NCBI GenBank assembly: GCA_964597895.1
Contig: CAZQZS010000001.1
Coordinates: forward strand, 183,178-247,177
Direction of reading: 5' to 3'
Origin: an uncultured Candidatus Saccharibacteria bacterium
Lineage (GTDB): Bacteria > Patescibacteriota > Doudnabacteria > UBA920
DNA: 64,000 nucleotides
The translations under genes were made by a program, and so were the position numbers. The notes beneath the pieces are model-generated. The model was not told where the DNA came from. It saw only the letters and a list, made by a program, of their open reading frames with translations, and did not search any database. Positions 4,094-58,832 of the stretch are shown in pieces. Numbering within the stretch: the stretch's first letter is position 1; every line of letters starts with the position of its first letter.

Positions 4094-4594
4094 ATGGAAA
4101 AGAGATCTCGCAAACCGAATAATCGCACTCCGCAGCAGCCTCGTGAATTTGATCAGAAGGTTGTGGAAGTTAAGCGCGTCACCCGCGTAGTTGCTGGTGG
4201 TAAGCGCATGCGTTTCCGCGCTTTGGTGGTAATTGGTGACCACAAAGGCAAAGTTGGTATTGGTTTGAAAAAGGGGATGGACGTTACTGAGAGCGTCAAC
4301 AAAGCCGTGAATGCTGCAAAGAAGAACATGATTACTGTACCGATTGTTAACGATACGATTCCTCACGAAGTTAAAGTAAAGTACAAGTCCAGCAAACTCT
4401 TGATGATGCCTGCTCGTCCTGGTACTGGTGTAATTGCCGGTGGCGCTGTCCGTAGCGTTTTGGACATGGCTGGTATTAAGAACGTAATCAGCAAAATGGT
4501 TGGGTCTAACAATAAGACTAACAACGTTCGCGCTGCTTACGAAGCGTTCAAGATGATGCGCAGTAAAGAAGATATCTTGGCAGCCCGCAAATAA
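4094..4594 (+). CDS. rpsE: 30S ribosomal protein S5
   Basis: VTRVVAGGKRMRFRALVVIGD...; S5 dsRBD and C-terminal domain. Confidence 0.93.
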   Translation: MEKRSRKPNNRTPQQPREFDQKVVEVKRVTRVVAGGKRMRFRALVVIGDHKGKVGIGLKKGMDVTESVNKAVNAAKKNMITVPIVNDTIPHEVKVKYKSSKLLMMPARPGTGVIAGGAVRSVLDMAGIKNVISKMVGSNNKTNNVRAAYEAFKMMRSKEDILAARK

Positions 4595-4606
4595 CTAATT
4601 TAAACC

Positions 4607-4756
4607 CCGAGTCGTCTGGGTCTCCCAGCGACGAGGAAACTTAAGGAAAGGGGAGGCAGACCGCGAAGCGGTCGTTGGAAAGGGTCCGGGTTAAGTCCAA
4701 ACTTGATTTGGACTGCTAACCGGTGAAAACCCCTTCTGGGTTTTCCCCTCCAAAGA
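4607..4756 (+). repeat. Family-A structured intergenic repeat, long variant, occupying the position where rpmD (L30) normally sits; ends 5 nt before rplO ATG
   Basis: Near-identical to 1-131 over ~130 nt. Confidence 0.8.
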
Positions 4757-5241: not shown

Positions 5242-6534
5242 TTGTATAATACCAATATGAATAAACTCAGTTTAATTTGGAAAACTAAGGATTTGCGCTG
5301 GAAAATCACCATGGTGCTGATTCTCTTGCTGATGACCCGCGTTTTGGCGCACATCCCAATCCCTGGGGTTAGCGTAGAAGGTTTGCGGACTTTCTTTGAA
5401 AGCAACCAATTCTTGAATTTGTTGAATATTTTCTCTGGTGGTGGGCTGAGCAATTTTTCTATTGCTTTACTTGGTGTCGGTCCTTACATTACCGCATCTA
5501 TCATCATGCAACTCTTGGCCATGATCGTACCTTCACTGCAGGAATTGCAAAAGGAAAGCGGAGAAGCTGGTCGTACAAAAATCAACCAGTACACAAGATT
5601 CCTAACTATCCCATTAGCGATTTTGTCCGGATTCGGTACTATTCGCTTGCTGCAAAGCCAGGGCGGAGCAGAACTGCTCGGCGTGTTCACTCCTTTCCAG
5701 TGGTTTTTGACTTTGCTCGCGGTTACAGCCGGAACCATGCTAGTCATGTGGATCGGTGAAATTATTTCTGAGTACGGCATTGGTAATGGTATCTCTTTGG
5801 TAATTTTCGCAGGTATCGTTGCGCAGCTGCCAGCCAGCGCAGGCTCTTTGATTGAACTGTATGATCCAACTCAATTGCCGACAATTTTAGGTTTTGCTGC
5901 TGTCTCACTGCTGGTTATTGCTGGAGTGGTCTATGTAACTGAAGCTCAGCGGAATATTCCTGTATCTTATGCTAAACGCATGCAGGGTGAACGCCAGGTC
6001 GGCGGAGTCAGTTCTCATCTGCCTTTGCGTTTAAACCAAGCCGGTGTAATTCCAATCATCTTTGCCATTTCCTTGTTGCTGTTCCCAGCGATTATCGCCC
6101 AGTTCTTTGTGAACGCCAAAACTCCTTTGGTTGCAGAATGGGCGCAGAAAGCTATTGACTTCACTAATAATCAAGGGCTGTGGTACGGCGTGGCTTACTT
6201 CGTATTAGTGGTATTGTTCACCTATTTCTACACCAATATCGTGGTTAATCCTGATGATGTTTCCAAGAATATGCAGCGCAGCGGGGGCTTTATTCCTGGT
6301 ATTCGCCCGGGAAATCAGACAGCTGATTATCTTTATAAAGTGCTAAACCGCATTACCTTGCCTGGTTCGTTATTCCTTGGCACGATTGCTATTCTGCCGT
6401 TCTTGATGCAGACTTGGACAGGCACTCAAGCCTTAACATTCGGCGGTACCGGATTGCTTATTGTTGTATCGGTTGTCATTGAAAGTATCAAACAGGTTGA
6501 GGCACAACTTACAATGCACGATTACCAGAAATAA
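5242..6534 (+). CDS. secY: Preprotein translocase subunit SecY (start may be 5257)
   Basis: 430 aa, 10 TM segments, conserved plug and gate regions, operon position after L15. Confidence 0.93.
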   Translation: MYNTNMNKLSLIWKTKDLRWKITMVLILLLMTRVLAHIPIPGVSVEGLRTFFESNQFLNLLNIFSGGGLSNFSIALLGVGPYITASIIMQLLAMIVPSLQELQKESGEAGRTKINQYTRFLTIPLAILSGFGTIRLLQSQGGAELLGVFTPFQWFLTLLAVTAGTMLVMWIGEIISEYGIGNGISLVIFAGIVAQLPASAGSLIELYDPTQLPTILGFAAVSLLVIAGVVYVTEAQRNIPVSYAKRMQGERQVGGVSSHLPLRLNQAGVIPIIFAISLLLFPAIIAQFFVNAKTPLVAEWAQKAIDFTNNQGLWYGVAYFVLVVLFTYFYTNIVVNPDDVSKNMQRSGGFIPGIRPGNQTADYLYKVLNRITLPGSLFLGTIAILPFLMQTWTGTQALTFGGTGLLIVVSVVIESIKQVEAQLTMHDYQK

Positions 6535-6556
6535 AATTATTTTTGATTGCAAATTT

Positions 6557-6582
6557 AAACCCCCGCTGCGCGGGGGTTTTTG
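6557..6582 (+). terminator. Rho-independent terminator after secY
   Basis: cccccgctgcgcggggg followed by tttttg. Confidence 0.8.
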
Positions 6583-14798: not shown

Positions 14799-14934
14799 TT
14801 TGGCCAATTTCTTTGTCGTCAGCTCCGCTACTCGTTCACCGTAACTTTCATTACGACTCACTCGTTGCTCGCTGACTCCTGGCTCGCGATGGTCGGGCTT
14901 TGCCCGACCAAGCTCGTGTCGAACTTGACTCAAA
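14799..14934 (+). repeat. Family-C structured intergenic repeat, copy 1, with extra ggtcgggc-ttt-gcccgacc hairpin
   Basis: Shares ttggccaatttctttgtc...ctcgttcaccgtaacttNcattacgRctcactcgKtgctc...gaacttgRctcaaa with 17303-17400. Confidence 0.8.
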
Positions 14935-17302: not shown

Positions 17303-17400
17303 TTTGGCCAATTTCTTTGTCACCAGTTCCGCTCCTCGTTCACCGTAACTTTTATTACGGCTCACTCGGTGCTCACTGGTTTCGCGAACTTGGCTCAAAA
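17303..17400 (+). repeat. Family-C structured intergenic repeat, copy 2
   Basis: See 14799-14934; conserved hairpin cgtaa-cttttat-ttacg at 17344-17359. Confidence 0.8.
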
Positions 17401-20342: not shown

Positions 20343-20716
20343 AAATTTTAGGAATTGATTTTGGTGAAAAGCGCATCGGTCTTGCTATCAGCGATGAAAC
20401 TCAAACATTAGCCCGTGAGCTAGATATTTGGTCGCCGGCAAAATTTTGGTTAGAAATTGCGGATCTGGTTTCCAAGCAGGCTGTAGAAAAGGTAGTGGTT
20501 GGCTTGCCACTGAATATGTCCGGAGAACAAACCGAAAAATCAGTCGAAGTTCAAACATTTGTTGACCAGTTGAGTAAGCTCATCAGCCAGCCAATAGAAT
20601 TAACAGATGAACGATTGTCCAGCGTGATGGCTGCCCAGGTAGCAGGACAAGACAGAAATATTGATAGTCTCGCAGCCCAAATATTCTTGCAAGAGTACTT
20701 AAATAGTAAAAAGTAA
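20339..20716 (+). CDS. ruvX: Putative pre-16S rRNA nuclease / Holliday junction resolvase-like YqgF
   Basis: ILGIDFGEKRIGLAISD N-terminus. Confidence 0.88.
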   Translation: MKILGIDFGEKRIGLAISDETQTLARELDIWSPAKFWLEIADLVSKQAVEKVVVGLPLNMSGEQTEKSVEVQTFVDQLSKLISQPIELTDERLSSVMAAQVAGQDRNIDSLAAQIFLQEYLNSKK

Positions 20717-20729
20717 AGAGTAAAATGTA

Positions 20730-21086
20730 ATGAAAGATAGTAATTATCAACATTGGCCAGTATGGCAAAAGTCTATGGAATTAGTACTCAAAGTTTATAA
20801 GTTAACTAATAATTTTCCAAAGTCTGAAATGTTTGGCCTCACTTCACAAATGCGCAGATGTGTAACCTCTATTCCTGCTAATATTGCCGAAGGTAGTAGA
20901 AGGAATTCAAAAAAAGAATTGCACAGATTTTTATCTATAGCTTTTGGTTCTGGGGCAGAGCTAGAAACTTTTTTACAGATTGCTTTATCTCTAAAATTTA
21001 TCAAATCATCTGAATTTAATGATTCATATCCGCTTTTACAGGAAGTGATGAAGATGTTAAACGTAATGACCAAAAATACCAGGTAA
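20730..21086 (+). CDS. Four-helix-bundle protein (23S rRNA intervening-sequence protein family), AT-rich gene
   Basis: W..S..L...VYKLT..FPK.E.FGLTSQMRR...SIPANIAEG family signature. Confidence 0.8.
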   Translation: MKDSNYQHWPVWQKSMELVLKVYKLTNNFPKSEMFGLTSQMRRCVTSIPANIAEGSRRNSKKELHRFLSIAFGSGAELETFLQIALSLKFIKSSEFNDSYPLLQEVMKMLNVMTKNTR

Positions 21087-21122
21087 AGCAGATTACTTCT
21101 TACTATTTACTTTTTAATTTTT

Positions 21123-22127
21123 ATGTCCCAATTTCGCCAAAATCCAGTTAATAAACAATGGGTTCTGATTGCGCCAAGCCGCAGCAAGCGCCCCGAAGAC
21201 TTCCGTACTTATAGCGTTGGTTTTGGCTTGCCAGAACTTGATCCTGCGTGCGTTTTTTGCCCTGGTAATGAACACAAAAATCCGGATCTATGCGAAGACG
21301 TCTGCCGTTTGCCGAACGATAATAATTGGCAGCTACGAGTAATCTCTAATAAATATTCTGCCCTAGAAGAAGCTCGGATTTATCGCAACCGAGATTTTTA
21401 TCATTCCCAGGCAGGATATGGAGAGCATGAAGTGATTATCACGCGCAAGCACAACGAACCGCCGGCTTTGCAATCGGCTGTCTTGGTTCAGCAGACTTTA
21501 AAGATGTTCCAGGACCGCATTAAGTTCATCCATCAAGATCCAAAGATTAATTACGTACAAATCTTTCATAACCACGGCCGCGACGCTGGCGCTTCACTGA
21601 TTCATCCCCACTATCAGATTTTGGCAACGCCAATGGTGCCACCTCATGTTCACGACGAAATCCGCGGCTGCTATCACCATTACCAGCTTACTGGCCACTG
21701 CATATATTGCGATATTATCAAAGAAGAAACCAAGCTGCGCGATCGCATTGTCTACGAAGACGATTATTTTATTGTGATGTCTGCATACGCGTCCCGCAGT
21801 CCGTTTGAAACTTGGGTTTTACCAAAGCGACACCACGCGCGTTTTGAGGCGACCTCTGACGTTGAATTGCTGCATTTATCGCATGTGCTCAAAAAGGTGC
21901 TTGGCTCTTTGTATGTAAAGCTCTCGGACCCGCCACTGAATTTTTATTTCCACTCCATGCCGAAATCAACTGACAAACACATTATTCAGGAAGAAAAGAG
22001 CTATCATTGGCACCTTACAATATTCCCACGCTTGACCATTTGGGCCGGCTTTGAGTACGGTACTGGCATTCCAGTGAACCCAATGGCCCCAGAAATGACG
22101 GCGCAATTTTTAAGAGGGGAGTTATGA
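21123..22127 (+). CDS. galT: Galactose-1-phosphate uridylyltransferase family (HIT-like)
   Basis: CVFCPGNEH zinc motif and HPHYQ active-site motif. Confidence 0.8.
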   Translation: MSQFRQNPVNKQWVLIAPSRSKRPEDFRTYSVGFGLPELDPACVFCPGNEHKNPDLCEDVCRLPNDNNWQLRVISNKYSALEEARIYRNRDFYHSQAGYGEHEVIITRKHNEPPALQSAVLVQQTLKMFQDRIKFIHQDPKINYVQIFHNHGRDAGASLIHPHYQILATPMVPPHVHDEIRGCYHHYQLTGHCIYCDIIKEETKLRDRIVYEDDYFIVMSAYASRSPFETWVLPKRHHARFEATSDVELLHLSHVLKKVLGSLYVKLSDPPLNFYFHSMPKSTDKHIIQEEKSYHWHLTIFPRLTIWAGFEYGTGIPVNPMAPEMTAQFLRGEL

Positions 22128-22817: not shown

Positions 22818-22978
22818 TCGCTCATTTGGCTTCAGTCGGAAGTAAATTCCAACCTTCAGCCAAATATCGCCCCTTTGGGGTTTAACCAATTGCTTCGTTA
22901 TTTTCCTCGGAACCCTGTCATCGTAGCTTTACTACGACTCCAGAGTTCCTCGGAAAATGCCTCGCACTTGGCTAAACG
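22818..22978 (+). repeat. Family-B structured intergenic repeat, copy 1 (contains terminator-like gcccctttggggttt and conserved hairpin cgtag-cttta-ctacg)
   Basis: Shares ~80 nt near-identity with 33974-34040 and a core related to family C. Confidence 0.8.
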
Positions 22979-23458: not shown

Positions 23459-24102
23459 TTATACCGGCAATTTTAGAAACGAATGCAAAACAATTTCAGG
23501 CAAAATTAAAAGAAGTTTTAGTTTTAAAGAATGGCATTAAAACCATTCAGGTTGATTTTGCGGATGGTGAGTTTGTGGCAACCAAAACCGTTGAGGTTGG
23601 GGAAATCAAACTCCCAAAAAATAAAATTGAGTTTGAAGCTCACCTCATGGTTAGGCGTCCTGATAACTTTACAGATTACAAAAAGGCCGGCTTTGATAAG
23701 ATCATTCTTCACTATGAGTCATTTGATAATGAAACAGAATTGGAAGATGCTTTGGAGGAAATTCGCAAGCTAAAGATGAAACCAGCGTTGGCAATTTCGC
23801 CGACCACGGCTGTTTCAGTATTGCGTTATTTTTCTGATAACATTTTGAATTTTACATTATTAGCCGTAGTGCCAGGCAAGCAAGGTCAGAAAATGCTTCC
23901 TGATACGCTTGAGAGGTTGATGGAACTCCGTGACCATGCCAAGGCAGGCACGGTAATTGAGGTTGACGGTGGAGTCAACGAAGCAAATATTGCCGGCTTA
24001 ATCGACGCGGGTGCGACCGATTGCGTAGTCGGCTCGGCTTTGGTCTCGGGTGATATAAAAGAAAATTATCAAACATTATTAGCAGCGATTACCAATGGCT
24101 AA
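23455..24102 (+). CDS. rpe: Ribulose-phosphate 3-epimerase
   Basis: IIPAIL N-terminus, VDGGVN, TIM-barrel Rpe pattern. Confidence 0.85.
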   Translation: MIIPAILETNAKQFQAKLKEVLVLKNGIKTIQVDFADGEFVATKTVEVGEIKLPKNKIEFEAHLMVRRPDNFTDYKKAGFDKIILHYESFDNETELEDALEEIRKLKMKPALAISPTTAVSVLRYFSDNILNFTLLAVVPGKQGQKMLPDTLERLMELRDHAKAGTVIEVDGGVNEANIAGLIDAGATDCVVGSALVSGDIKENYQTLLAAITNG

Positions 24103-24946
24103 ACTTTCTTCAGTAGAATTACAACTCACAGCGAACAGCATTCGCCAAAATATTATTGAAATGTTAGTGGAAGCGGGAAGCGGGCATAGCGCAGGACCGT
24201 TAGGCATGTCTGACGTGTTTACGGCGCTGTATTTTGAGCTGATGAACATTGATCCAAAAAAGCCAGATTGGGATGAGCGCGATTGGCTAGTACTATCCTG
24301 CGGTCACATCTGCCCGGTACTTTACGCAACTTTATCGGAGCGCGGCTTTTTTCCAAAGTCAGAGTTAAAGACTTTGCGTAAACTTGGCACTCGCTTGCAA
24401 GGTCATCCGCATAACCTGTCTCTCCCTGGAATAGAAACTACCAGCGGTCCCTTAGCGCAGGGCTCATCACAGGCTGTCGGAATTGCGCTAGCTTTTCGCA
24501 TGAATAAGCAAAGAAATCGGGTTTATTTAGTTATGAGCGATGGTGAGCAGCAGGAGGGTCAGACTTGGGAAGCGGTAATGCTTGCCGGTAAAGAAAAGCT
24601 CCACAACCTTACTGCAGTTATTGACCGCAATAATATTCAAATTGATGGTTACACCGAAGACGTAATGCCCCTTGATGATTTAAAGGCTAAGTACGAAGCC
24701 TTTAATTGGCATGTCATTGAGGTTGATGGTCATAATATTCAGGCGGTGATTAACGCCTATCGTGAAGCCGAAGCCATTTACGAAAAACCCACAGTCATTA
24801 TTGCGCATACAATTCCCGGTAAAGGCGTTGATTTTATGGAAGGTAAGTATGAGTGGCACGGCAAACCACCAAAGCCAGAGGAAGCCAAAGTTGCGTTGCA
24901 AGAACTGCGAACTCTTCAAGGAAAAATCAAGAGCGAACATGAATAA
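24095..24946 (+). CDS. Transketolase, N-terminal (TPP-binding) subunit of a split transketolase
   Basis: GSGHSAGPLGMSDV, GHPH motif regions. Confidence 0.88.
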   Translation: MAKLSSVELQLTANSIRQNIIEMLVEAGSGHSAGPLGMSDVFTALYFELMNIDPKKPDWDERDWLVLSCGHICPVLYATLSERGFFPKSELKTLRKLGTRLQGHPHNLSLPGIETTSGPLAQGSSQAVGIALAFRMNKQRNRVYLVMSDGEQQEGQTWEAVMLAGKEKLHNLTAVIDRNNIQIDGYTEDVMPLDDLKAKYEAFNWHVIEVDGHNIQAVINAYREAEAIYEKPTVIIAHTIPGKGVDFMEGKYEWHGKPPKPEEAKVALQELRTLQGKIKSEHE

Positions 24947-25051
24947 AGGATATAATCGTGGTTATGCACTTGTCACTAGTCCTCGACCAGCAACTGGTCT
25001 GCGGAATAGTTCCAAGCGCATAACCACCATTTAGAAGGTTGTAATAAAAGT

Positions 25052-26041
25052 ATGTTAAATCCAAAACAAAAATTAAATCCTGATTTAGGAAAAAGTACCA
25101 TTGAGCAAAAGGCCACTCGCGACGGTTTTGGCGACGCTCTTTTGGAACTGGGTGAAAAAGATGACCGCATTGTGGCGCTCACGGGAGACTTGGCAGAATC
25201 CACGCGCGTGCTGCCTTTTGCAGAAAAATTTCCAGAGCGGTTTATTGAATGCGGTGTGGCTGAGCAAAACATGATGGGCGTGGCGGCGGGTTTGGCTCTG
25301 GCGGGTAAGATTCCTTTCGCGGCAAGTTATGCAACGTTCAGTCCAGGTCGGAATTGGGATCAGTTGCGCGTGTCGGTTTGTTATAGCCAAGCCAACGTAA
25401 AAATTATCGGAGCGCATACAGGTGTTTCGGTCGGTCCGGATGGCGCAACTCACCAAGCTTTAGAGGATATTGCGATTACCAGAGTCTTACCGAATCTTAC
25501 AGTGATTCAGCCATGTGATGCACATGAGGCGCTCAAGGCAACTTCTGCAATAGCTCATGCCACTGGTCCGCATTATCTTCGTCTTACTCGCGAAAAAACC
25601 CCGCTGATTACTACTGAGGATTCGCCGTTTCAAATCGGCAAAGCCAATATCATCAAAGAAGGAAAGGATGTTGCCTTAATCGGCTGTGGCCCTGTCCTGT
25701 ATAATGGTATTAAGGCCGCCCTAGAGCTAGAGCCGGGAAATATTAATGTTTTAGTGATGAATTTGCACACTATCAAACCGTTAGATGATTCAGCTTTAAT
25801 TTGGGCTGCGAAATTAACTGGTGCGGTAGTAACTTTAGAAGAACATCAGGTTAACGGCGGGATGGGAAGTGCAGTAGCAGAATTTTATGCAAAGAATTAT
25901 CCGATTCCAATTGAAATGGTTGGTATGCAAGATAGTTTTGGAGAAAGCGGCAGACCAGAAGAATTGTGGGAAAAGTATGGCATGGGGGTTGAAGCAATTA
26001 AACAAGCAATACACAAAGTCATTAAGAGAAAGGTTAAATAA
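25052..26041 (+). CDS. Transketolase, C-terminal (pyrimidine-binding) subunit
   Basis: Tkt central and C-terminal domain similarity. Confidence 0.88.
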   Translation: MLNPKQKLNPDLGKSTIEQKATRDGFGDALLELGEKDDRIVALTGDLAESTRVLPFAEKFPERFIECGVAEQNMMGVAAGLALAGKIPFAASYATFSPGRNWDQLRVSVCYSQANVKIIGAHTGVSVGPDGATHQALEDIAITRVLPNLTVIQPCDAHEALKATSAIAHATGPHYLRLTREKTPLITTEDSPFQIGKANIIKEGKDVALIGCGPVLYNGIKAALELEPGNINVLVMNLHTIKPLDDSALIWAAKLTGAVVTLEEHQVNGGMGSAVAEFYAKNYPIPIEMVGMQDSFGESGRPEELWEKYGMGVEAIKQAIHKVIKRKVK

Positions 26042-33973: not shown

Positions 33974-34136
33974 TCGCTCATTTGGCTTAAGTTGTAAGTA
34001 AATTCCAACTTTCAGCCAAATATCGCCCCTTCGGGGTTTAGTCAATTTCATTGTCATCGGCTTCCGTTACTCATTCATCGTACTATTAAGTACGACTCAT
34101 TCGTTACTCAGCCGATTCCTCGAGCTTGACTAAACG
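33974..34136 (+). repeat. Family-B structured intergenic repeat, copy 2 (gccccttcggggttt; hairpin cgtac-tattaa-gtacg)
   Basis: See 22818-22978. Confidence 0.8.
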
Positions 34137-37800: not shown

Positions 37801-39078
37801 ATGCACTCCAAAGAAGATAAATTTTTAATAACTGGCAACCAGCCTCTGGGTGGTGAAATCAAGGTGGTGGGGGCAAAAAATGCGAGCCTTAAAGCTTTGG
37901 CTGCCAGCTTGATATTGGACGGCCCAAGCGTCATTAAAAATGTTCCTCACATTGAAGACATCCAAAGGCTTTTGGATATTATTGTTGATCTGGGTGTGCA
38001 AATTCGGCAAGAAGGTCATCAGATTACTATCACCAATCCAATTATTGCCAAATCCACGCTAGATCCGACTTTGCACCAGCGAACACGTTCTTCCATTCTT
38101 CTGGCTGTGCCAACCTTGCTCCAGCATGGCGAAGTAGAGTTTGCCTATCCAGGCGGCTGTGTGATTGGTAAGCGCCCGATTGATTTTTTTCTAAATGGCT
38201 ACAGGCAATTTGGGATCAACATAGAAGAACGGGGTGATGGCTTTTTGCTGCGAGCCAACAAACTCAATCCTGCCCGAGTGGTGTTTACACGCGTAAGCGT
38301 TACTGGTACCGAAGCCATGATGATGCTGGCTGCCAGAGTGCCAGGCCAGAGCGTAATTGTTAACGCAGCAATGGAGCCCGAAGTAGTGGCGTTAGGGGAA
38401 TTTCTAAATAACTGCGGCGCCAACATTTCTGGCCTCGGTACACCCCGTATCATTATTGAAGGAGTAGACCGGCTTGAGGGCGGAATTTTTATCACCCCGC
38501 CGGATAGAATCGAGGCTGGCACGTTTAGCATTCTCGCTGCTGCGGCCAATGCGGAACTGCTGGTAAGTAATATTGAACCCAATCATTTAGAAGTGTTTTG
38601 GCAGCTGCTGCGGCAGGCTGGTGTTGAGTTTGAACTAGGCGCTAATAATGTTAAGATAAGTCCATCGCGCCATCGGCTTAAAGCCATTCCTAAAGACATA
38701 ATCACGCATGAATATCCAGGTTTTCCTACAGATTTACAGGCGCCGATGGCGGTATTGATGACTCAGGCGAAAGGTCAGTCTTTAATTTTTGAGACGATTT
38801 ATGAAGGTCGGTTGTTTTATGTTGATTTGCTTAATAGTATGGGCGCAAACATCTTTATGGCCGACCCCCATCGAGTGATGATTAATGGTCCAAGTCAATT
38901 GACTGGCGCAAAACTTACTTCGCCAGACATACGCGCTGGTATTGCGATGGTTATCGCCGGACTTATTGCCGAAGGTCAGACTGAGATTGATAATATCTAC
39001 CAAATCGATCGTGGTTATGAAAACATTGAAAATCGCTTGAAAGCTATTGGCGCCCAGATAGAACGCATAAAAAATTAA
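37801..39078 (+). CDS. murA: UDP-N-acetylglucosamine 1-carboxyvinyltransferase (alt. TTG start 37789)
   Basis: EPT fold; GGGAGG SD before ATG at 37801. Confidence 0.9.
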   Translation: MHSKEDKFLITGNQPLGGEIKVVGAKNASLKALAASLILDGPSVIKNVPHIEDIQRLLDIIVDLGVQIRQEGHQITITNPIIAKSTLDPTLHQRTRSSILLAVPTLLQHGEVEFAYPGGCVIGKRPIDFFLNGYRQFGINIEERGDGFLLRANKLNPARVVFTRVSVTGTEAMMMLAARVPGQSVIVNAAMEPEVVALGEFLNNCGANISGLGTPRIIIEGVDRLEGGIFITPPDRIEAGTFSILAAAANAELLVSNIEPNHLEVFWQLLRQAGVEFELGANNVKISPSRHRLKAIPKDIITHEYPGFPTDLQAPMAVLMTQAKGQSLIFETIYEGRLFYVDLLNSMGANIFMADPHRVMINGPSQLTGAKLTSPDIRAGIAMVIAGLIAEGQTEIDNIYQIDRGYENIENRLKAIGAQIERIKN

Positions 39079-39099
39079 ATGATCGTATTCCATTTACCA

Positions 39100-39200
39100 C
39101 TACCCACTTCGGAGGTAGTAAGCTAGCGCCAGACCGCCAAAGCCTAACGTGAGTTAGGCGAAAGGCGGGCGAGAGCGCTGCCGAAGAAGTGGGTGGCTAA
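39100..39200 (+). other. ~100-nt rod-like structured leader ending ~8 nt before the mreB ATG
   Basis: cccacttcgg/ccgaag(aag)tggg outer stem; gcgc/gcgc, ccgcc/ggcgg inner stems; apical gcctaac-GTGA-gttaggc. Confidence 0.5.
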
Positions 39201-39207
39201 AAGAATT

Positions 39208-40215
39208 ATGTTACAGAACAAAATTGGAATTGATTTAGGAACAGCTAATGTATTAGTGCACGTGCCCAAGCGCGGCATTATTATCAACGAACCAACAGTG
39301 GTGGCCATCTCGGTAGATGACAACCGCGTTTTGGCCGTTGGTCAGGAAGCCAAAGAAATGCTGGGGCGCACCCCCGAAACTATTGTGGCGCACCGGCCTA
39401 TGAAGGACGGGGTGATCGCTGATTACAGGGTCACCGAAGCTATGATTCGCTACTTTATTAATAAAGCCTTGGGGAAAGTCCGCTTTTTTCGTCCGGAAGT
39501 CATGATTAGCGTGCCGGGAGGAATTACTTCTACCGAGCGTCGCGCTGTGATTGACGCCGCGCAAAGTGCTGGTGCTAAAACCGCTTTTGTTATTAAAGAA
39601 ACCGTTGCGGCTGCTATTGGTGCTGGGATTCCGATTTCTTCGGCCAGCGGGAATTTGATTATAGACATGGGCGGGGGCACTACTGATGTAGCCGTGCTGT
39701 CGCTCGGTGGCATAGTAAATTCAACTTCTGTGCGCGTGGCTGGTAACCGTATCGACCAAGCCATCATTGAATATGTTCGCAAAAAGCACGGTCTGGCAAT
39801 CGGAGATCGCACGGCAGAAGAAATTAAAATTTCCATTGGTAGCGCTATGGCTTTACCGGAAGAAGAAGTCGCGGAAATCAAAGGACGCGACAATATTACT
39901 GGTCTTCCTAAAACCGTGACGATTTCTACTAACGAAGTTGTAGAAGCCATTCAGGAAGAATTAAAAGCTATTGTTCGTGCTGTGAAAACTGTACTTCAGG
40001 AAACGCCGCCGGAACTCGCCAGCGATATTATCGATAAAGGTATGATTATGACCGGTGGTACTGCCCAGCTTCGCAACTTGGATCAGTACATTGCAAAAGC
40101 CATTGGCGTGCCATGTTACGTGGCCGAAGAGCCGCTGCTTTGCGTAGCTAAAGGTACAGCGATTGCGCTGGATCACTTGGACAGTTATAAGAAGAGCATA
40201 CTTAGTATCAAATAA
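39208..40215 (+). CDS. mreB: Rod-shape-determining protein MreB (track GTG 39193 start lies inside the structured leader)
   Basis: IGIDLGTANVLV actin-fold phosphate-1 motif. Confidence 0.9.
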   Translation: MLQNKIGIDLGTANVLVHVPKRGIIINEPTVVAISVDDNRVLAVGQEAKEMLGRTPETIVAHRPMKDGVIADYRVTEAMIRYFINKALGKVRFFRPEVMISVPGGITSTERRAVIDAAQSAGAKTAFVIKETVAAAIGAGIPISSASGNLIIDMGGGTTDVAVLSLGGIVNSTSVRVAGNRIDQAIIEYVRKKHGLAIGDRTAEEIKISIGSAMALPEEEVAEIKGRDNITGLPKTVTISTNEVVEAIQEELKAIVRAVKTVLQETPPELASDIIDKGMIMTGGTAQLRNLDQYIAKAIGVPCYVAEEPLLCVAKGTAIALDHLDSYKKSILSIK

Positions 40216-40245: not shown

Positions 40246-40716
40246 TCAGAAACAGCCTTGTCGCTGGGACAGCAGTTCTGTGGCTAGTGTGTCGTAGATT
40301 TTGCTGAACAACTGTTCTGGCTCACTGAGTAAAGTCTCGTCGATTGCGCCTAGACCCCGATCGCTGGAATGAACAAATTGCTGTTTAGCTTTTTTGATTT
40401 GGGCGTGGTACGCGCCGATACGATCAGAGAATCCTTTCTGGTAGATTTCGAATGGTTTGAACCAGTCAAGTTCGACCATCGCTTTCTGACAAAGCTCAAG
40501 CTGTGATCGGGTATCTCGGTCGGAAACCAAGTACTGCTTGGTCGCTTGGTGAACTTTACCGAGAAAGTCTAGGGCATTATCCAACGCGTCTAGATTGCGC
40601 TGGAACCGTTCTTTGTCGTCCCAGGCTTTTCGGGAGAAGGCAAAGTTAACACTAGCGATCAGGGCTTGTTGCGCGGAATTGCGCAAGTTATCAACTCCAC
40701 CACTGCAACTAATCAT
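40246..40716 (-). CDS. Hypothetical protein (156 aa)
   Basis: ORF ending at terminator. Confidence 0.5.
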   Translation of the reverse strand: MISCSGGVDNLRNSAQQALIASVNFAFSRKAWDDKERFQRNLDALDNALDFLGKVHQATKQYLVSDRDTRSQLELCQKAMVELDWFKPFEIYQKGFSDRIGAYHAQIKKAKQQFVHSSDRGLGAIDETLLSEPEQLFSKIYDTLATELLSQRQGCF

Positions 40717-48437: not shown

Positions 48438-48579
48438 TATTAGTTCCTCCTTTGCGGTAAATTGTGCCATAAAGGGTTAAAAAAAGCTACCCCAGCGGTT
48501 AAGCCCGACTATTCCCTCACAGCAAGTAGGCGCGGGAAATCCTGTTGATAAACCCCTCACTGGAAAGGGGGTGGTTTAG

Positions 48580-49326: not shown

Positions 49327-49431
49327 TGGAGAGGGCGCCGGGATTTGAACCCGGACCTTGGCCTAAGTTGGCCTGCCTCTGGGGAGGTACAGTTTTCAAG
49401 ACTGTTGCTTTTTCCATTAAGCTACGCCCCC
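49327..49431 (-). tRNA. tRNA-Ser(UGA)-like, 105 nt, with abnormal 34-nt variable region
   Basis: Acceptor GGGGGCG/CGCCCTC, D arm GCTT-AATGGAAA-AAGC, anticodon arm ACAGT-CTTGAAA-ACTGT, T arm CCGGG-TTCAAAT-CCCGG, encoded CCA. Confidence 0.7.
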
Positions 49432-50012: not shown

Positions 50013-50855
50013 CTATTGGTGAACCAGCCGATTTAAAAGCACCAAGAAAATCGGAACAGGAGAGCGAGAGTGAGTCAGACGAAAGCTAAACTCGTTTAAG
50101 TAGTCCTGCAAATATTTGGGCGAGACTCTATGATACGTGCCATCGATAGACCGCTTGATTTGGCTAAAGAAGCCCTCAACGCTGTTGGTGTGAGTCCAGC
50201 CATTAACATACTGCTTACTAGAGTGGTTCACAGAGCTATGACCATAACCCTTTAGGCTCTTGCGGTTATACACCGAAGCACCGTCAGTCATAATCGCACT
50301 GCCGGCCTCAACCTCGTTATGGATTAACGGAATGGTATTGAACTGCTTTATTTTCTGCATTACCACAGCTTTAGCACTACCGCCACGCTGAACCAAACCT
50401 AAAACCTTTGGAACACCCGCCCTAGAGCGTGGTGTTTTCATTTTCTCCAAGTAGGCTTCATCCACCTCAACCACTCCGCTTAGTTTTAAGTCGCTCAAAT
50501 CCATAAGGGAGCGGATTTGTTTAGCGATACGCCAAGCAGTTTTGTAGGTTACACCCAAGTCTCTTTCCAACTCTTTGCCGGAAACTCCATTACGAGAGTT
50601 GGCGAACTTGTAAATGGCGAAGAACCACAAGACTAAATCTGTTTCTGATTTATGGAAGATAGTCCCAGCAGTGGGGTGAATTTGATAAGCACAGCTAGCG
50701 CAAGCCCACGCTTTGCGTTTCTTAATCCTGTGCCAACTAGACTTCCCACAGTTAGGGCAAGGGAACTGATAGCCATAACGATACTTAAAGATATACTCCA
50801 AGCAAGCGTCATTATCTGGGAAGTCTTTTTTGAAGTCTTTTATTGTGTATTTCAT
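50013..50855 (-). mobile_element. IS1595-family (ISXO2-like) transposase gene; IS boundaries not determined
   Basis: N-terminal Zn-ribbon CPNCG...CASC; DDE region with DEAY, TDGASVY, HSSVNHS..YVNG.HTNSVEGFFSQIKR. Confidence 0.85.
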
Positions 50856-51148
50856 ACATTAAAGTTAATTATATTTTGAGAGTAACTCCATACTTACTTG
50901 TTGTCAAGGGATAGTCGGGCGGTTAAGTGTGCATAACTAGGGAGCTATTTCGGAGAATCATCAAAACCTTTTTAATTAAGAGGGTTTTTTTAGTTTTGAG
51001 GTGAGGTATATAAATTGAAAAATGGGTCAGAGTGGGGTATACTGACTTCAAGTGGAATGGAGTGGGGAAAAGTGGGGATAAGTGGGTGGATAAGTGGACA
51101 ACTCAAATCATTCAGATTTCTGAAACTAACAGTAATAGACGCGAAGAC

Positions 51149-51246
51149 ATCTGGCTTTGCCAGGGTCTGAGCACCCAAGGAAAGGGGAGGCAGGAGCGAA
51201 GCGACGTTGGAAGGAGAAAACCCTTCCCGGGTTTTCTCCTCCAAAC
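51149..51246 (+). repeat. Family-A structured repeat, divergent copy, ending at the mraZ ATG
   Basis: tctggctttgccag...ggaaaggggaggcag...ttggaaggagaaaaccc...gggttttctcctccaaa; compensatory changes in hairpins. Confidence 0.7.
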
Positions 51247-58545: not shown

Positions 58546-58620
58546 TGGCTGGGGTACCAGGATTCGAACCTGGGAATGAGCGGACCAAAACCGCTTGCCT
58601 TACCACTTGGCTATACCCCA
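58546..58620 (-). tRNA. tRNA-Gln(UUG)
   Basis: Cloverleaf: acceptor TGGGGTA/TACCCCA, anticodon arm AGCGG-TTTTGGT-CCGCT, T arm CCAGG-TTCGAAT-CCTGG, G73+CCA. Confidence 0.85.
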
Positions 58621-58696
58621 ATATATAATTTTCTGATTCGTTTGCCTGTGTCCGCTCTGAGCGGACCTCTATAATATAACGGCTACTGGCGTAAGC

Positions 58697-58731
58697 CTAT
58701 GGCGCTTGCCTTACCACTTGGCTATACCCCA
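58697..58731 (-). pseudogene. Duplicated 5' half of tRNA-Gln (~30 nt identical to 58593-58620)
   Basis: gcttgccttaccacttggctatacccca repeated 104 nt downstream. Confidence 0.6.
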
Positions 58732-58832
58732 ATAATTTTCAATTAGCCTTGATATGATACCGAAAATAGTGGTTTTTGGCAAGAATGCGCGCGTTTTTGT
58801 ATGGTATAATTTACCTATATTTAACAAGATTT

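Follow-up and report, generated by a model that had tools for sequence, protein, structure and literature searches.

The long hairpin that separates murA from mreB in the 64,000-nucleotide stretch of DNA analyzed here (the window) is, with a probability of roughly three in four, a copy of a small, non-coding, palindromic and non-autonomous mobile element that resembles REPINs and MITEs and that represents a new family, known so far from Candidatus Doudnabacteria only. The element is a lineage-specific insertion that occupies the entire spacer between the two genes. Further copies are dispersed over other gene junctions in related species, and the copies have conserved ends, an interior that is kept complementary by compensatory changes, and a consistent asymmetry between the strands. 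The hairpin behaves as a dispersed mobile repeat and not as a gene-specific riboregulator.

REP/REPIN, Correia, and ERIC repeats are familiar from Proteobacteria and a handful of other phyla. In the literature, we found no description of small palindromic mobile repeats in the reduced genomes of about 1 Mb of the Candidate Phyla Radiation (Patescibacteria). On our reading, even extremely compact genomes tolerate and exchange such elements, here in the 1-7-nt junctions of the essential operons murA-mreB and lytR-engA, and the window offers a natural experiment in which translationally coupled genes have been pushed apart by a 35-bp RNA helix. For annotation purposes, the start of mreB should be placed at the ATG at 39208 and not at a GTG within the hairpin, and the hairpin should not be catalogued as an mreB riboregulator.

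A stable rod in the murA-mreB spacer

The spacer between the murA stop codon (TAA, 39076-39078) and the mreB ATG measures 129 nt. The rod extends from 39100 to 39196 on the plus strand, and its 97 nt adopt a single-rod fold with 35 bp and an MFE of -58.2 kcal/mol (Table 1). For the slightly longer stretch 39080-39215 the MFE is -60.7 kcal/mol (z = -6.26), and none of 200 dinucleotide shuffles is equally stable. The rod-like hairpin that a first-pass annotation had described here from the sequence alone is therefore real as a predicted structure, as are its apical GCCUAAC-GUGA-GUUAGGC helix and the CCGCC/GGCGG helix below it. In a scan of the whole plus strand, the rod is the most stable 110-nt stretch of the window, tied with the copies of another repeat, family A, described below. 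The complementary strand of the rod is less stable by 9-13 kcal/mol, and 25 of the 27 unpaired bases within the rod are purines (P = 3.5e-4 given the composition of the rod).

The outer stem had also been recognized, though in a register that has to be revised. The first-pass pairing of CUUCGG with CCGAAG, with an AAG bulge, is 9 kcal/mol worse than the pairing of CUACCCACUUC with GAAGUGGGUGG, and its pairs are broken in two homologues. Lower energy and the support of homologues thus both favor the latter register, in which 11 bp are followed by a 3x3 GGA/GAA loop and by GGUAGU/GCUGCC. The basal arms of the element (CTACCCACTTCGGAGGTAG... and ...CTGCCGAAGAAGTGGGTRG, or CTACCCACTTC...GAAGTGGGTAG) are inverted repeats, and each arm is itself a small imperfect palindrome, CTACC-N9-GGTAG. 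Upstream of the rod, a degenerate remnant of a further hairpin, P0, is found at ~39085-39097 (GTATTCCATTTAC).

The distance from the rod to the mreB ATG is 11 nt and not the approximately 8 nt estimated before. The mechanically called GTG at 39193 lies inside the element, as had been pointed out, namely in the 3' arm of the rod. This GTG is not the start of mreB; orthologous MreB proteins all begin at the ATG with M(L/F)QNKIGIDLG.

Several readings of individual segments were considered and rejected. The rod is not an intrinsic terminator: it is followed by CUAAAAGAAUU without a U-tract, and the terminator scan was negative here. The SD-like sequence GGAGG at 39111-39115 is unsuited as a displaced ribosome-binding site, being ~93 nt upstream of the mreB ATG, half paired, and absent from one of the two subtypes of the element described below (beta), which has GAGGGAG instead. 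A short open reading frame from the ATG at 39080 was discarded, its frame not being conserved in the L096 copy, and no reading frame is kept between the copies, as judged from their sequences. A promoter belonging to the element itself was likewise rejected, with only weak -10-like hexamers at varying positions.

Table 1. Parts of the murA-mreB junction in the window, followed by the other full copies of the element
Feature	Position	Strand or orientation	Basis
murA (UDP-N-acetylglucosamine 1-carboxyvinyltransferase), upstream cistron	37801-39078	+	Translation; Pfam EPSP_synthase on the identical L081 gene
5' flank of the element; abuts the murA stop	39079-39099	+	Alignments
P1, 5' strand CUACCCACUUC; partner 39186-39196	39100-39110	+	MFE folds; pairing across 5 copies
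IL1, 5' side GGA, all purines; opposite GAA 39183-39185	39111-39113	+	Fold
P2, 5' strand GGUAGU, AA bulge, GCU	39114-39124	+	Fold, copy comparison
Junction AGCGCC (conserved), bulge, P3 5' strand CCGCC, IL2 5' side AAA	39125-39141	+	Alignments
Apical hairpin P4, GCCUAAC-GUGA-GUUAGGC, 7 bp and tetraloop	39142-39159	+	Fold
IL2 GAAA, P3 3' strand GGCGG, junction GCGAGAG (conserved), AGC, P2 3' strand GCUGCC, IL1 GAA	39160-39185	+	
P1, 3' strand GAAGUGGGUGG; contains the mechanical GTG "start" 39193	39186-39196	+	Fold
A-rich single-stranded tail CUAAAAGAAUU (conserved); mreB positions -11 to -1	39197-39207	+	Alignments
mreB, downstream cistron, 335 aa; start ATG 39208-39210	39208-40215	+	Orthologue N-termini
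Copy in the ftsZ / DUF202 spacer (740 nt) of another Doudnabacteria species (FtsZ 89% identical)	L096:6624-6737		Two-part pattern
Copy at the 114-aa gene / NTP_transf_2 junction of a sister species	L120:19495-19598	+	
Copy at the same 114-aa gene / NTP_transf_2 junction of another species	L122:13392-13492	Inverted relative to L120	
Copy at the lytR/engA junction of the window's own species; contig ends inside the element	L125:1-98	Antisense to lytR and engA	

Insertion into a formerly contiguous junction

The MreB sequence assigns the window to Candidatus Doudnabacteria (Patescibacteria). We compared 80 mreB loci from species-representative genomes, 44 of them Doudnabacteria-like, together with contigs from Logan, NCBI, and ENA that carry exact MreB variants. 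Among the ~45 orthologous Doudnabacteria mreB loci, the element is absent from all but those of the window's own species. Within that species it is unchanged save for one substitution, A39099G, found in Logan contigs, which adds a G-C pair to P1, as in the L096 and L122 copies. In the two closest species, whose MreB differs by one residue and whose DNA is 83% identical, the murA stop lies 1 nt from the mreB ATG, and in the next lineage (MreB with nine differing residues) the gap is 7 nt, compared with 129 nt in the window. With a sister genome, L127, the window shares 21 kb of syntenic, collinear sequence at 71-83% identity, interrupted exactly at the murA-mreB spacer and at other hairpin-bearing spacers. 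The 129-nt spacer is therefore a lineage-specific insertion into a junction that used to be contiguous.

A second difference from the sister species lies on the other side of mreB, where a 156-aa orphan gene without a Pfam match is encoded on the opposite strand (40246-40716). It is part of ~540 nt missing from the sister species, where the next gene directly follows mreB. A link between the element and this orphan gene, or a reverse transcriptase, was considered and dropped, as it finds no support in Pfam.

Copies elsewhere and empty sites

A homologue in L096 was found with a two-part pattern derived from the basal stems. Further copies were sought in the ftsZ and mreB neighborhoods of related genomes, using BLAST and a covariance model built from four copies. 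Five full copies are now known, besides remnants; they occupy four loci in four species, two of the five belonging to the species of the window. With the model, which was built from the window copy and three of the others, the four homologous full copies score 95-149 bits; the L125 copy, which is not among the source copies of the model, scores 94.7 bits. The L096 copy is placed between the terminator of ftsZ and the promoter of the DUF202 gene, so that it may not be part of any mRNA, and in two of the five cases the element is antisense to the surrounding genes. Remnants include a degenerate second copy beside the full copy in L122, and a 3' remnant at the lytR/engA junction of L120 (L120:3500-3536), which adjoins a copy of another hairpin family.

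The same junctions are found empty in other genomes. The murA/mreB junction is empty in sister species (1-7 nt), the 114-aa gene/NTP_transf_2 junction is empty in the species of the window (2 nt), the lytR/engA junction is empty in L113 and L114 (7 nt), and the element is missing from the ftsZ spacers of four relatives. Sister species thus show reciprocal presence and absence, the classic signature of a mobile or dispersed element.

Neither BLAST nor the covariance model detected another copy in the 64-kb window. The sampled density amounts to two copies in ~82 kb of the window's species and to one copy and one remnant in ~42 kb of the sister species; the element was not found in ~60 kb of L127-L131. 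A very rough extrapolation from this DNA, which represents less than 10% of any genome, gives ~10-25 copies per Mb. The exact apical 22-mer has no match in JGI metagenomes, viral contigs gave only chance 17-mer matches, and plasmid and phage collections gave none. Two candidates for further evidence were discarded: L097 is a chance match and not a homologue, and the mreB 5' sequence seemingly carried along with the L120 copy comes down to ~13/24 matches in AT-rich DNA, which is not significant.

Anatomy and conservation of the family

The whole unit of ~130-150 bp consists of a small upstream hairpin, a rod of 97-114 nt, and an A-rich tail. All five copies share one rod architecture (-58 to -65 kcal/mol, z = -6.3 to -8.5), and in all five it is the same strand that folds better, by 4-13 kcal/mol over its complement. 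From the outside inwards, the common elements are P0 (intact as GGATT-loop-AATCC in the L120, L096, and L122 copies), P1 with 11 bp, an all-purine 3x3 or 4x4 loop, P2 with 6 bp of which one or two are G.U pairs, and an AA bulge. There follow the junctions AGCGCC and CGAGAG, P3 with 4-6 bp, a loop with A(A/U)A opposite GAA(A/G), and P4. In the window, P2 contains two G.U pairs; its GGUAGU strand pairs with GCUGCC at 39177-39182 and its GCU with AGC at 39174-39176. The tail GCU(A/U)AA..GAA is common to all copies.

The interior differs strongly in sequence while remaining paired, P3 and P4 being formed by different yet fully complementary sequences in different copies. P3 occurs as CCGCC/GGCGG, CCGGCC/GGCCGG, CGGC/GCCG, or CCGGU/ACCG. 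P4 is a 7-bp helix in three copies and longer in two, and in the former it is capped by GUGA, GUCA, or GUUA (GUNA). The helices GCUCGCU-GUCA-GGCGAGC of L125 and GCCCGCU-GUUA-GGCGGGC of L122 show compensated changes in 5 of the 7 pairs. The apical loop had been called GNRA-type, which holds for the window copy and not for its paralogues with GUCA and GUUA.

In the outer part, 98% of the P1 and P2 cells are paired across the five copies. Position 2 of P1 is variously U.G, U-A, or C-G, and position 3 of P2 is U.G in three copies and G-C in two; at both positions, the two strands have each changed. The covariation score of P1 and P2 was reached by 3 of 500 shuffles, a weak statistic given that only five sequences enter it. 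Two subtypes can be distinguished, alpha (GGUAGU/GCUGCC) and beta (GGGAGU/GCUCCC), which cut across species, so that the window's species has both.

Arm identity between copies is 74-100% and that of the centers 56-91%, compared to 76-82% for the ftsZ DNA of the same species. In most comparisons, both ends are better conserved than coding DNA. All pairs agree at 84-100% in the 5' arm, whereas identity in the 3' arm drops as low as 74% between subtypes. That the 5' end is more conserved than coding DNA suggests constraint, but recent transfer between species could have the same effect.

Other hairpins and repeats in these genomes

Several of the long spacers in the window are insertions relative to the sister genome, and the window holds several other intergenic hairpin families. 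Hairpin elements are thus a general and rapidly turning-over feature of these compact genomes, and it is apparently in tight gene junctions that they persist.

The repeats of family A each comprise several hairpins, measure ~120-160 nt (-46 to -59 kcal/mol), and occur at 1-130, 970-1091, 4592-4754, and 51141-51245 of the window and at L127:18831-18985, the copy at mraZ being shared with the sister species at 86-90% identity. Its copies end ~7 nt before the starts of rplP (L16), rplN (L14), rplO (L15), and mraZ, and its 3' end CCCCUCCAA pairs with the SD-like GGAAGGGG. The D1 hairpin family is found at 14799-14874, 17303-17378, and 34038-34113 of the window and at the lytR/engA junction of L120 (L120:3340-3450), where its abutting on the remnant of the element studied here indicates nested insertions. 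Two copies of the D5 family (22818-22901 and 33974-34057) are 87% identical; the one at 33974 forms, with the adjacent D1, a ~190-nt insertion between iPGM and recJ, where the spacer in L127 is 52 nt. A 78-nt hairpin (24954-25031, arms 83% complementary) occupies yet another operon junction, exactly between the two halves of a split transketolase, whose N-terminal gene lies at 24095-24946 and whose C-terminal gene lies at 25052-26041.

The window also contains larger repeat-bounded segments. The segment 48503-50920, which is not collinear with L127, is delimited by 26-nt repeats (48503-48528 and 50895-50920), likely the inverted repeats of the IS1595-family transposase gene inside it (50013-50855, minus strand). 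Within the same segment, a 102-nt tRNA-like sequence at 49330-49431 (minus strand) scores 62 bits with the Rfam tRNA model, was missed by ARAGORN, and lies between 27-nt inverted repeats of its own. Elsewhere, in the segment 20697-21126, inverted repeats of 35 nt (20697-20731 and 21092-21126) enclose a gene for a 23S-rRNA-intervening-sequence protein with a bAvd-like fold (20730-21086), with no adjoining reverse transcriptase. Part of tRNA-Gln (58546-58620, minus strand) recurs as an exact 32-nt duplicate 111 nt away (58592-58623 and 58703-58734), which may mark an integration site.

In other Doudnabacteria, two layouts are found upstream of mreB (represented by loci L003, L013-L017, L020-L024, L026-L028, L032, L035, and L039, at ~1380-1500 in each, and by L006-L012, L018, and L031): a leaderless type, with TATAAT, 6-9 nt, and the ATG, or long hairpins unrelated to the rod, which start ~7 nt after an extended -10 box and end 1-26 nt before the ATG. 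Short periodic repeats, such as GAATTAT/G x5 in L039, often make up the arms of these hairpins. In L021/L023, a second, inverted copy of the hairpin follows just after mreB. The ftsZ-DUF202 spacer of L096 (6174-6914) is a pile-up of palindromes that contains, besides the element, a second (duplicated) terminator, a ~110-nt palindrome (6213-6318), a 44-nt direct repeat (6287-6330 and 6519-6562), and a GC-rich structured stretch.

Alternative explanations

The elaborate structure of the element invites functional explanations. The copies could be paralogues of a small structured RNA that is transcribed on its own and acts in trans or binds proteins, with genes that would happen to lie in different spacers. 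The conserved architecture, with its covarying helices, asymmetric purine-rich loops, GUNA caps in three copies, tail, and upstream hairpin, speaks for such RNAs, as do the constancy of the better-folding strand and a 5' arm conserved above the level of coding DNA, and an orientation independent of the neighboring genes would suit a gene with its own promoter. However, the copies have no conserved flanking promoter or terminator, the sequences upstream of P0 are unrelated, and the rod lacks a U-tract. Moreover, the copies exactly fill stop/start junctions of operons, alternate in presence and absence between sister species, leave truncated and nested remnants, and comprise two diverged subtypes within one genome. 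Taken together, this makes independent small RNAs an unlikely explanation.

Asymmetric purine loops and a GUNA loop are more elaborate than mobility alone seems to need, which counts against the preferred reading. It is on account of these elaborately conserved loops that we keep in consideration, as a rather improbable alternative, a functional RNA module of Patescibacteria or a general hairpin-before-start device for gene expression. In one variant, the element could be a portable intercistronic cassette, whose rod would bring the upstream stop close to the downstream start and whose A-rich tail could offer a landing site that needs no Shine-Dalgarno sequence; if so, it could enter operon junctions of 1-7 nt and leave the gene behind it active. 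In another, it could be a small RNA that binds a protein and propagates by way of an RNA intermediate, hinted at by the A-rich 3' tail and by imperfect direct repeats in the flanks. In a third, wider variant, Doudnabacteria may routinely set long hairpins of many unrelated families between the promoter or stop codon and the start codon of genes that are otherwise leaderless or coupled.

The first-pass annotation had sought the role of the hairpin in its position before mreB. A cis-regulatory leader RNA dedicated to mreB, which would sense a signal or a protein and control translation or stability, accounts for the closeness of the rod to the mreB start, its very high stability, its purine-rich loops, and the occurrence of long hairpins just before mreB in several other Doudnabacteria. 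Those hairpins are not homologous to the rod, however, and at least one of them (L021/L023) is itself a repeat. The element has homologues at unrelated genes, two of them antisense to the flanking genes, and it matches no Rfam family. Above all, its pairing is not conserved upstream of orthologous mreB genes outside the window's species, even where MreB is nearly identical. As this is the observation by which the first-pass annotation itself had proposed to judge the idea, the leader reading fails, and we consider it very unlikely.

Finally, a neutral local palindrome that arose by chance, for example by replication slippage, and that has neither family nor function would fit the low-complexity, AT-rich hairpins of short periodic repeats found in many Doudnabacteria spacers, but can be dismissed for an element that is GC-rich and not of low complexity, that has four homologous full copies recognized by the covariance model (the L125 copy without having contributed to it), and whose arms are 74-100% identical across species with ftsZ DNA at 76-82%.

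Probable spread of the element and its possible effect on the operon

As it codes for nothing and no transposase is found near any copy, the element is probably non-autonomous. It would spread via a strand-specific folded form, either single-stranded DNA or RNA, with the help of a transposase or recombinase encoded elsewhere. Proposed mechanisms for REPINs with RAYT and for systems of the IS200/IS605 type invoke such a folded intermediate (PMC3116915). A cognate transposase was not found in the sampled DNA. The only insertion sequence of the window is the IS1595-family one, whose inverted repeats are unrelated, and Y1_Tnp is absent from the Pfam lists of the fetched loci and of 30 window ORFs, which cover less than 10% of any genome.

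The flanks of the window and L120 copies contain imperfect A/T-rich direct repeats, of which the 3' one overlaps the conserved tail. A target-site duplication formed by TAAAAAATTAAATG and TAAAAGAATTATG was rejected, because the right-hand copy is the conserved tail of the element itself, and no unambiguous target-site duplication was found at the copies compared; the empty sites available for comparing flanks come from other species with diverged flanks.

A scan found no promoter or terminator adjoining the element in the window. With nothing of the kind to separate it from murA, the rod is probably transcribed inside the murA-mreB mRNA, where it would form an interrupted helix of 35 bp between the two cistrons. 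This helix probably breaks the tight stop-start coupling of the sister species, a 1-nt junction being replaced by a spacer of 129 nt. P1, the purine loop, and P2 together would make a quasi-continuous helix of ~20 bp, a plausible site for RNase III-type processing or a barrier to exonucleases, of the kinds described for Correia and REP elements, and the A-rich tail may supply unstructured bases immediately before the mreB start codon. The rod may in these ways influence the processing, stability, or translation of the mRNA.

Comparison with known systems

No known RNA family accounts for the element. With Rfam at gathering thresholds, the whole window gave two tRNA matches only; at E <= 10, the region 38950-39350 gave only chance matches to CRISPR repeats and miRNAs outside the rod, and the L096 copy gave nothing relevant. 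SRP RNA (4.5S, RF00169) had been considered by the first-pass annotation and doubted, rightly, as cmscan finds neither it nor any other family at the rod, even at E <= 10. The element shares with SRP RNA the ~100-nt rod and the apical tetraloop, but it varies most in the very region, the apex, that SRP RNA conserves best, and it has several diverged copies per genome. Kinship with 5S rRNA, suggested by eye from shared hexamers (GGUAGU, AGCGCC, GCGAGAG, GCCGAA, and GAAGUG), was dropped because their order is not collinear and the Rfam 5S model gives no match at E <= 10. A kink-turn in the inner loop was also rejected: GGGC-GAA-GA-CCG in L096 and L122 resembles Kt-7, but the window, L125, and L120 copies lack the G.A pair that such a motif requires.

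The attC sites of integrons are likewise imperfect palindromes of 60-140 nt that fold from one specific strand and lie at gene boundaries, with conserved and unpaired bases and a variable terminal structure. However, no integrase or cassette array accompanies the element, and the base of the hairpin, which in all copies is CUACCCAC/GUGGGURG, lacks the attC core sites R'' (RYYYAAC) and R' (GTTRRRY); the attC-like GCCTAAC/GTTAGGC sits at the apex of the window copy alone, its place being taken by other sequences in the remaining copies. An attC site was rejected on these grounds.

Closer parallels are found among MITEs. The element is ~130-150 bp long (<300 bp), non-coding, and bounded by terminal inverted repeats, and its copies are dispersed at non-orthologous sites, with empty sites (1-7 nt) at three loci. 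Correia (CREE/NEMIS), ERIC, RUP, and BOX elements are small non-coding elements of ~100-150 bp with terminal inverted repeats that lie near or between genes (PMC2649163, PMC2229807, PMC10969869). As in these, presence and absence vary between close relatives. Such elements are co-transcribed and folded into long RNA hairpins, which for the window element is only probable; Correia elements are reported to bind RNase III, to be cut or protected by it, and to alter the expression of adjacent genes (PMC2649163). Unlike them, the element shows no sequence similarity to any of these families, no TA or other clear target duplication, and no recognizable IHF site or end-generated promoter; its copy number is apparently far lower and its interior structure is more tightly constrained.

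Compared with REPs and REPINs, the element has longer stems and more elaborate conserved internal loops, and its sampled copy number is low; those repeats number tens to hundreds per genome. In ~0.7 Mb of related DNA we came across no RAYT, and Patescibacteria are not among the phyla listed for REPs. REP units carry an unpaired terminal GTAG (or CGTC) tag at one end. In the element, the outer ends are CTAC...GTAG for the L096 and L122 copies, CTAC...GTGG for the window copy, and CCAC...GTGG for the L120 and L125 copies, so that a GTAG tag is present only in part; GTGG is a degenerate form reported for some REP families. The tag of the element is base-paired and its polarity is reversed with respect to the canonical order of 5'-GTAG followed by the palindrome (PMC3733652). 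Both the element and REPs are extragenic hairpins of ~100 nt that lie between unidirectional genes and occur as several subtypes per genome. The element has G.T(U) wobble pairs on one strand, and G-T pairing in REP stems has been taken as a hint of transcription as RNA; REPs have also been hypothesized to stabilize mRNA (PMC3733652). REPINs are defined by conserved inverted ends around a less conserved spacer that keeps its hairpin, in single-stranded DNA or mRNA, through compensatory changes (PMC3116915), and the same combination is observed here, with arms at 74-100% identity, centers at 56-91%, and P3 and P4 replaced by other, fully paired sequences.
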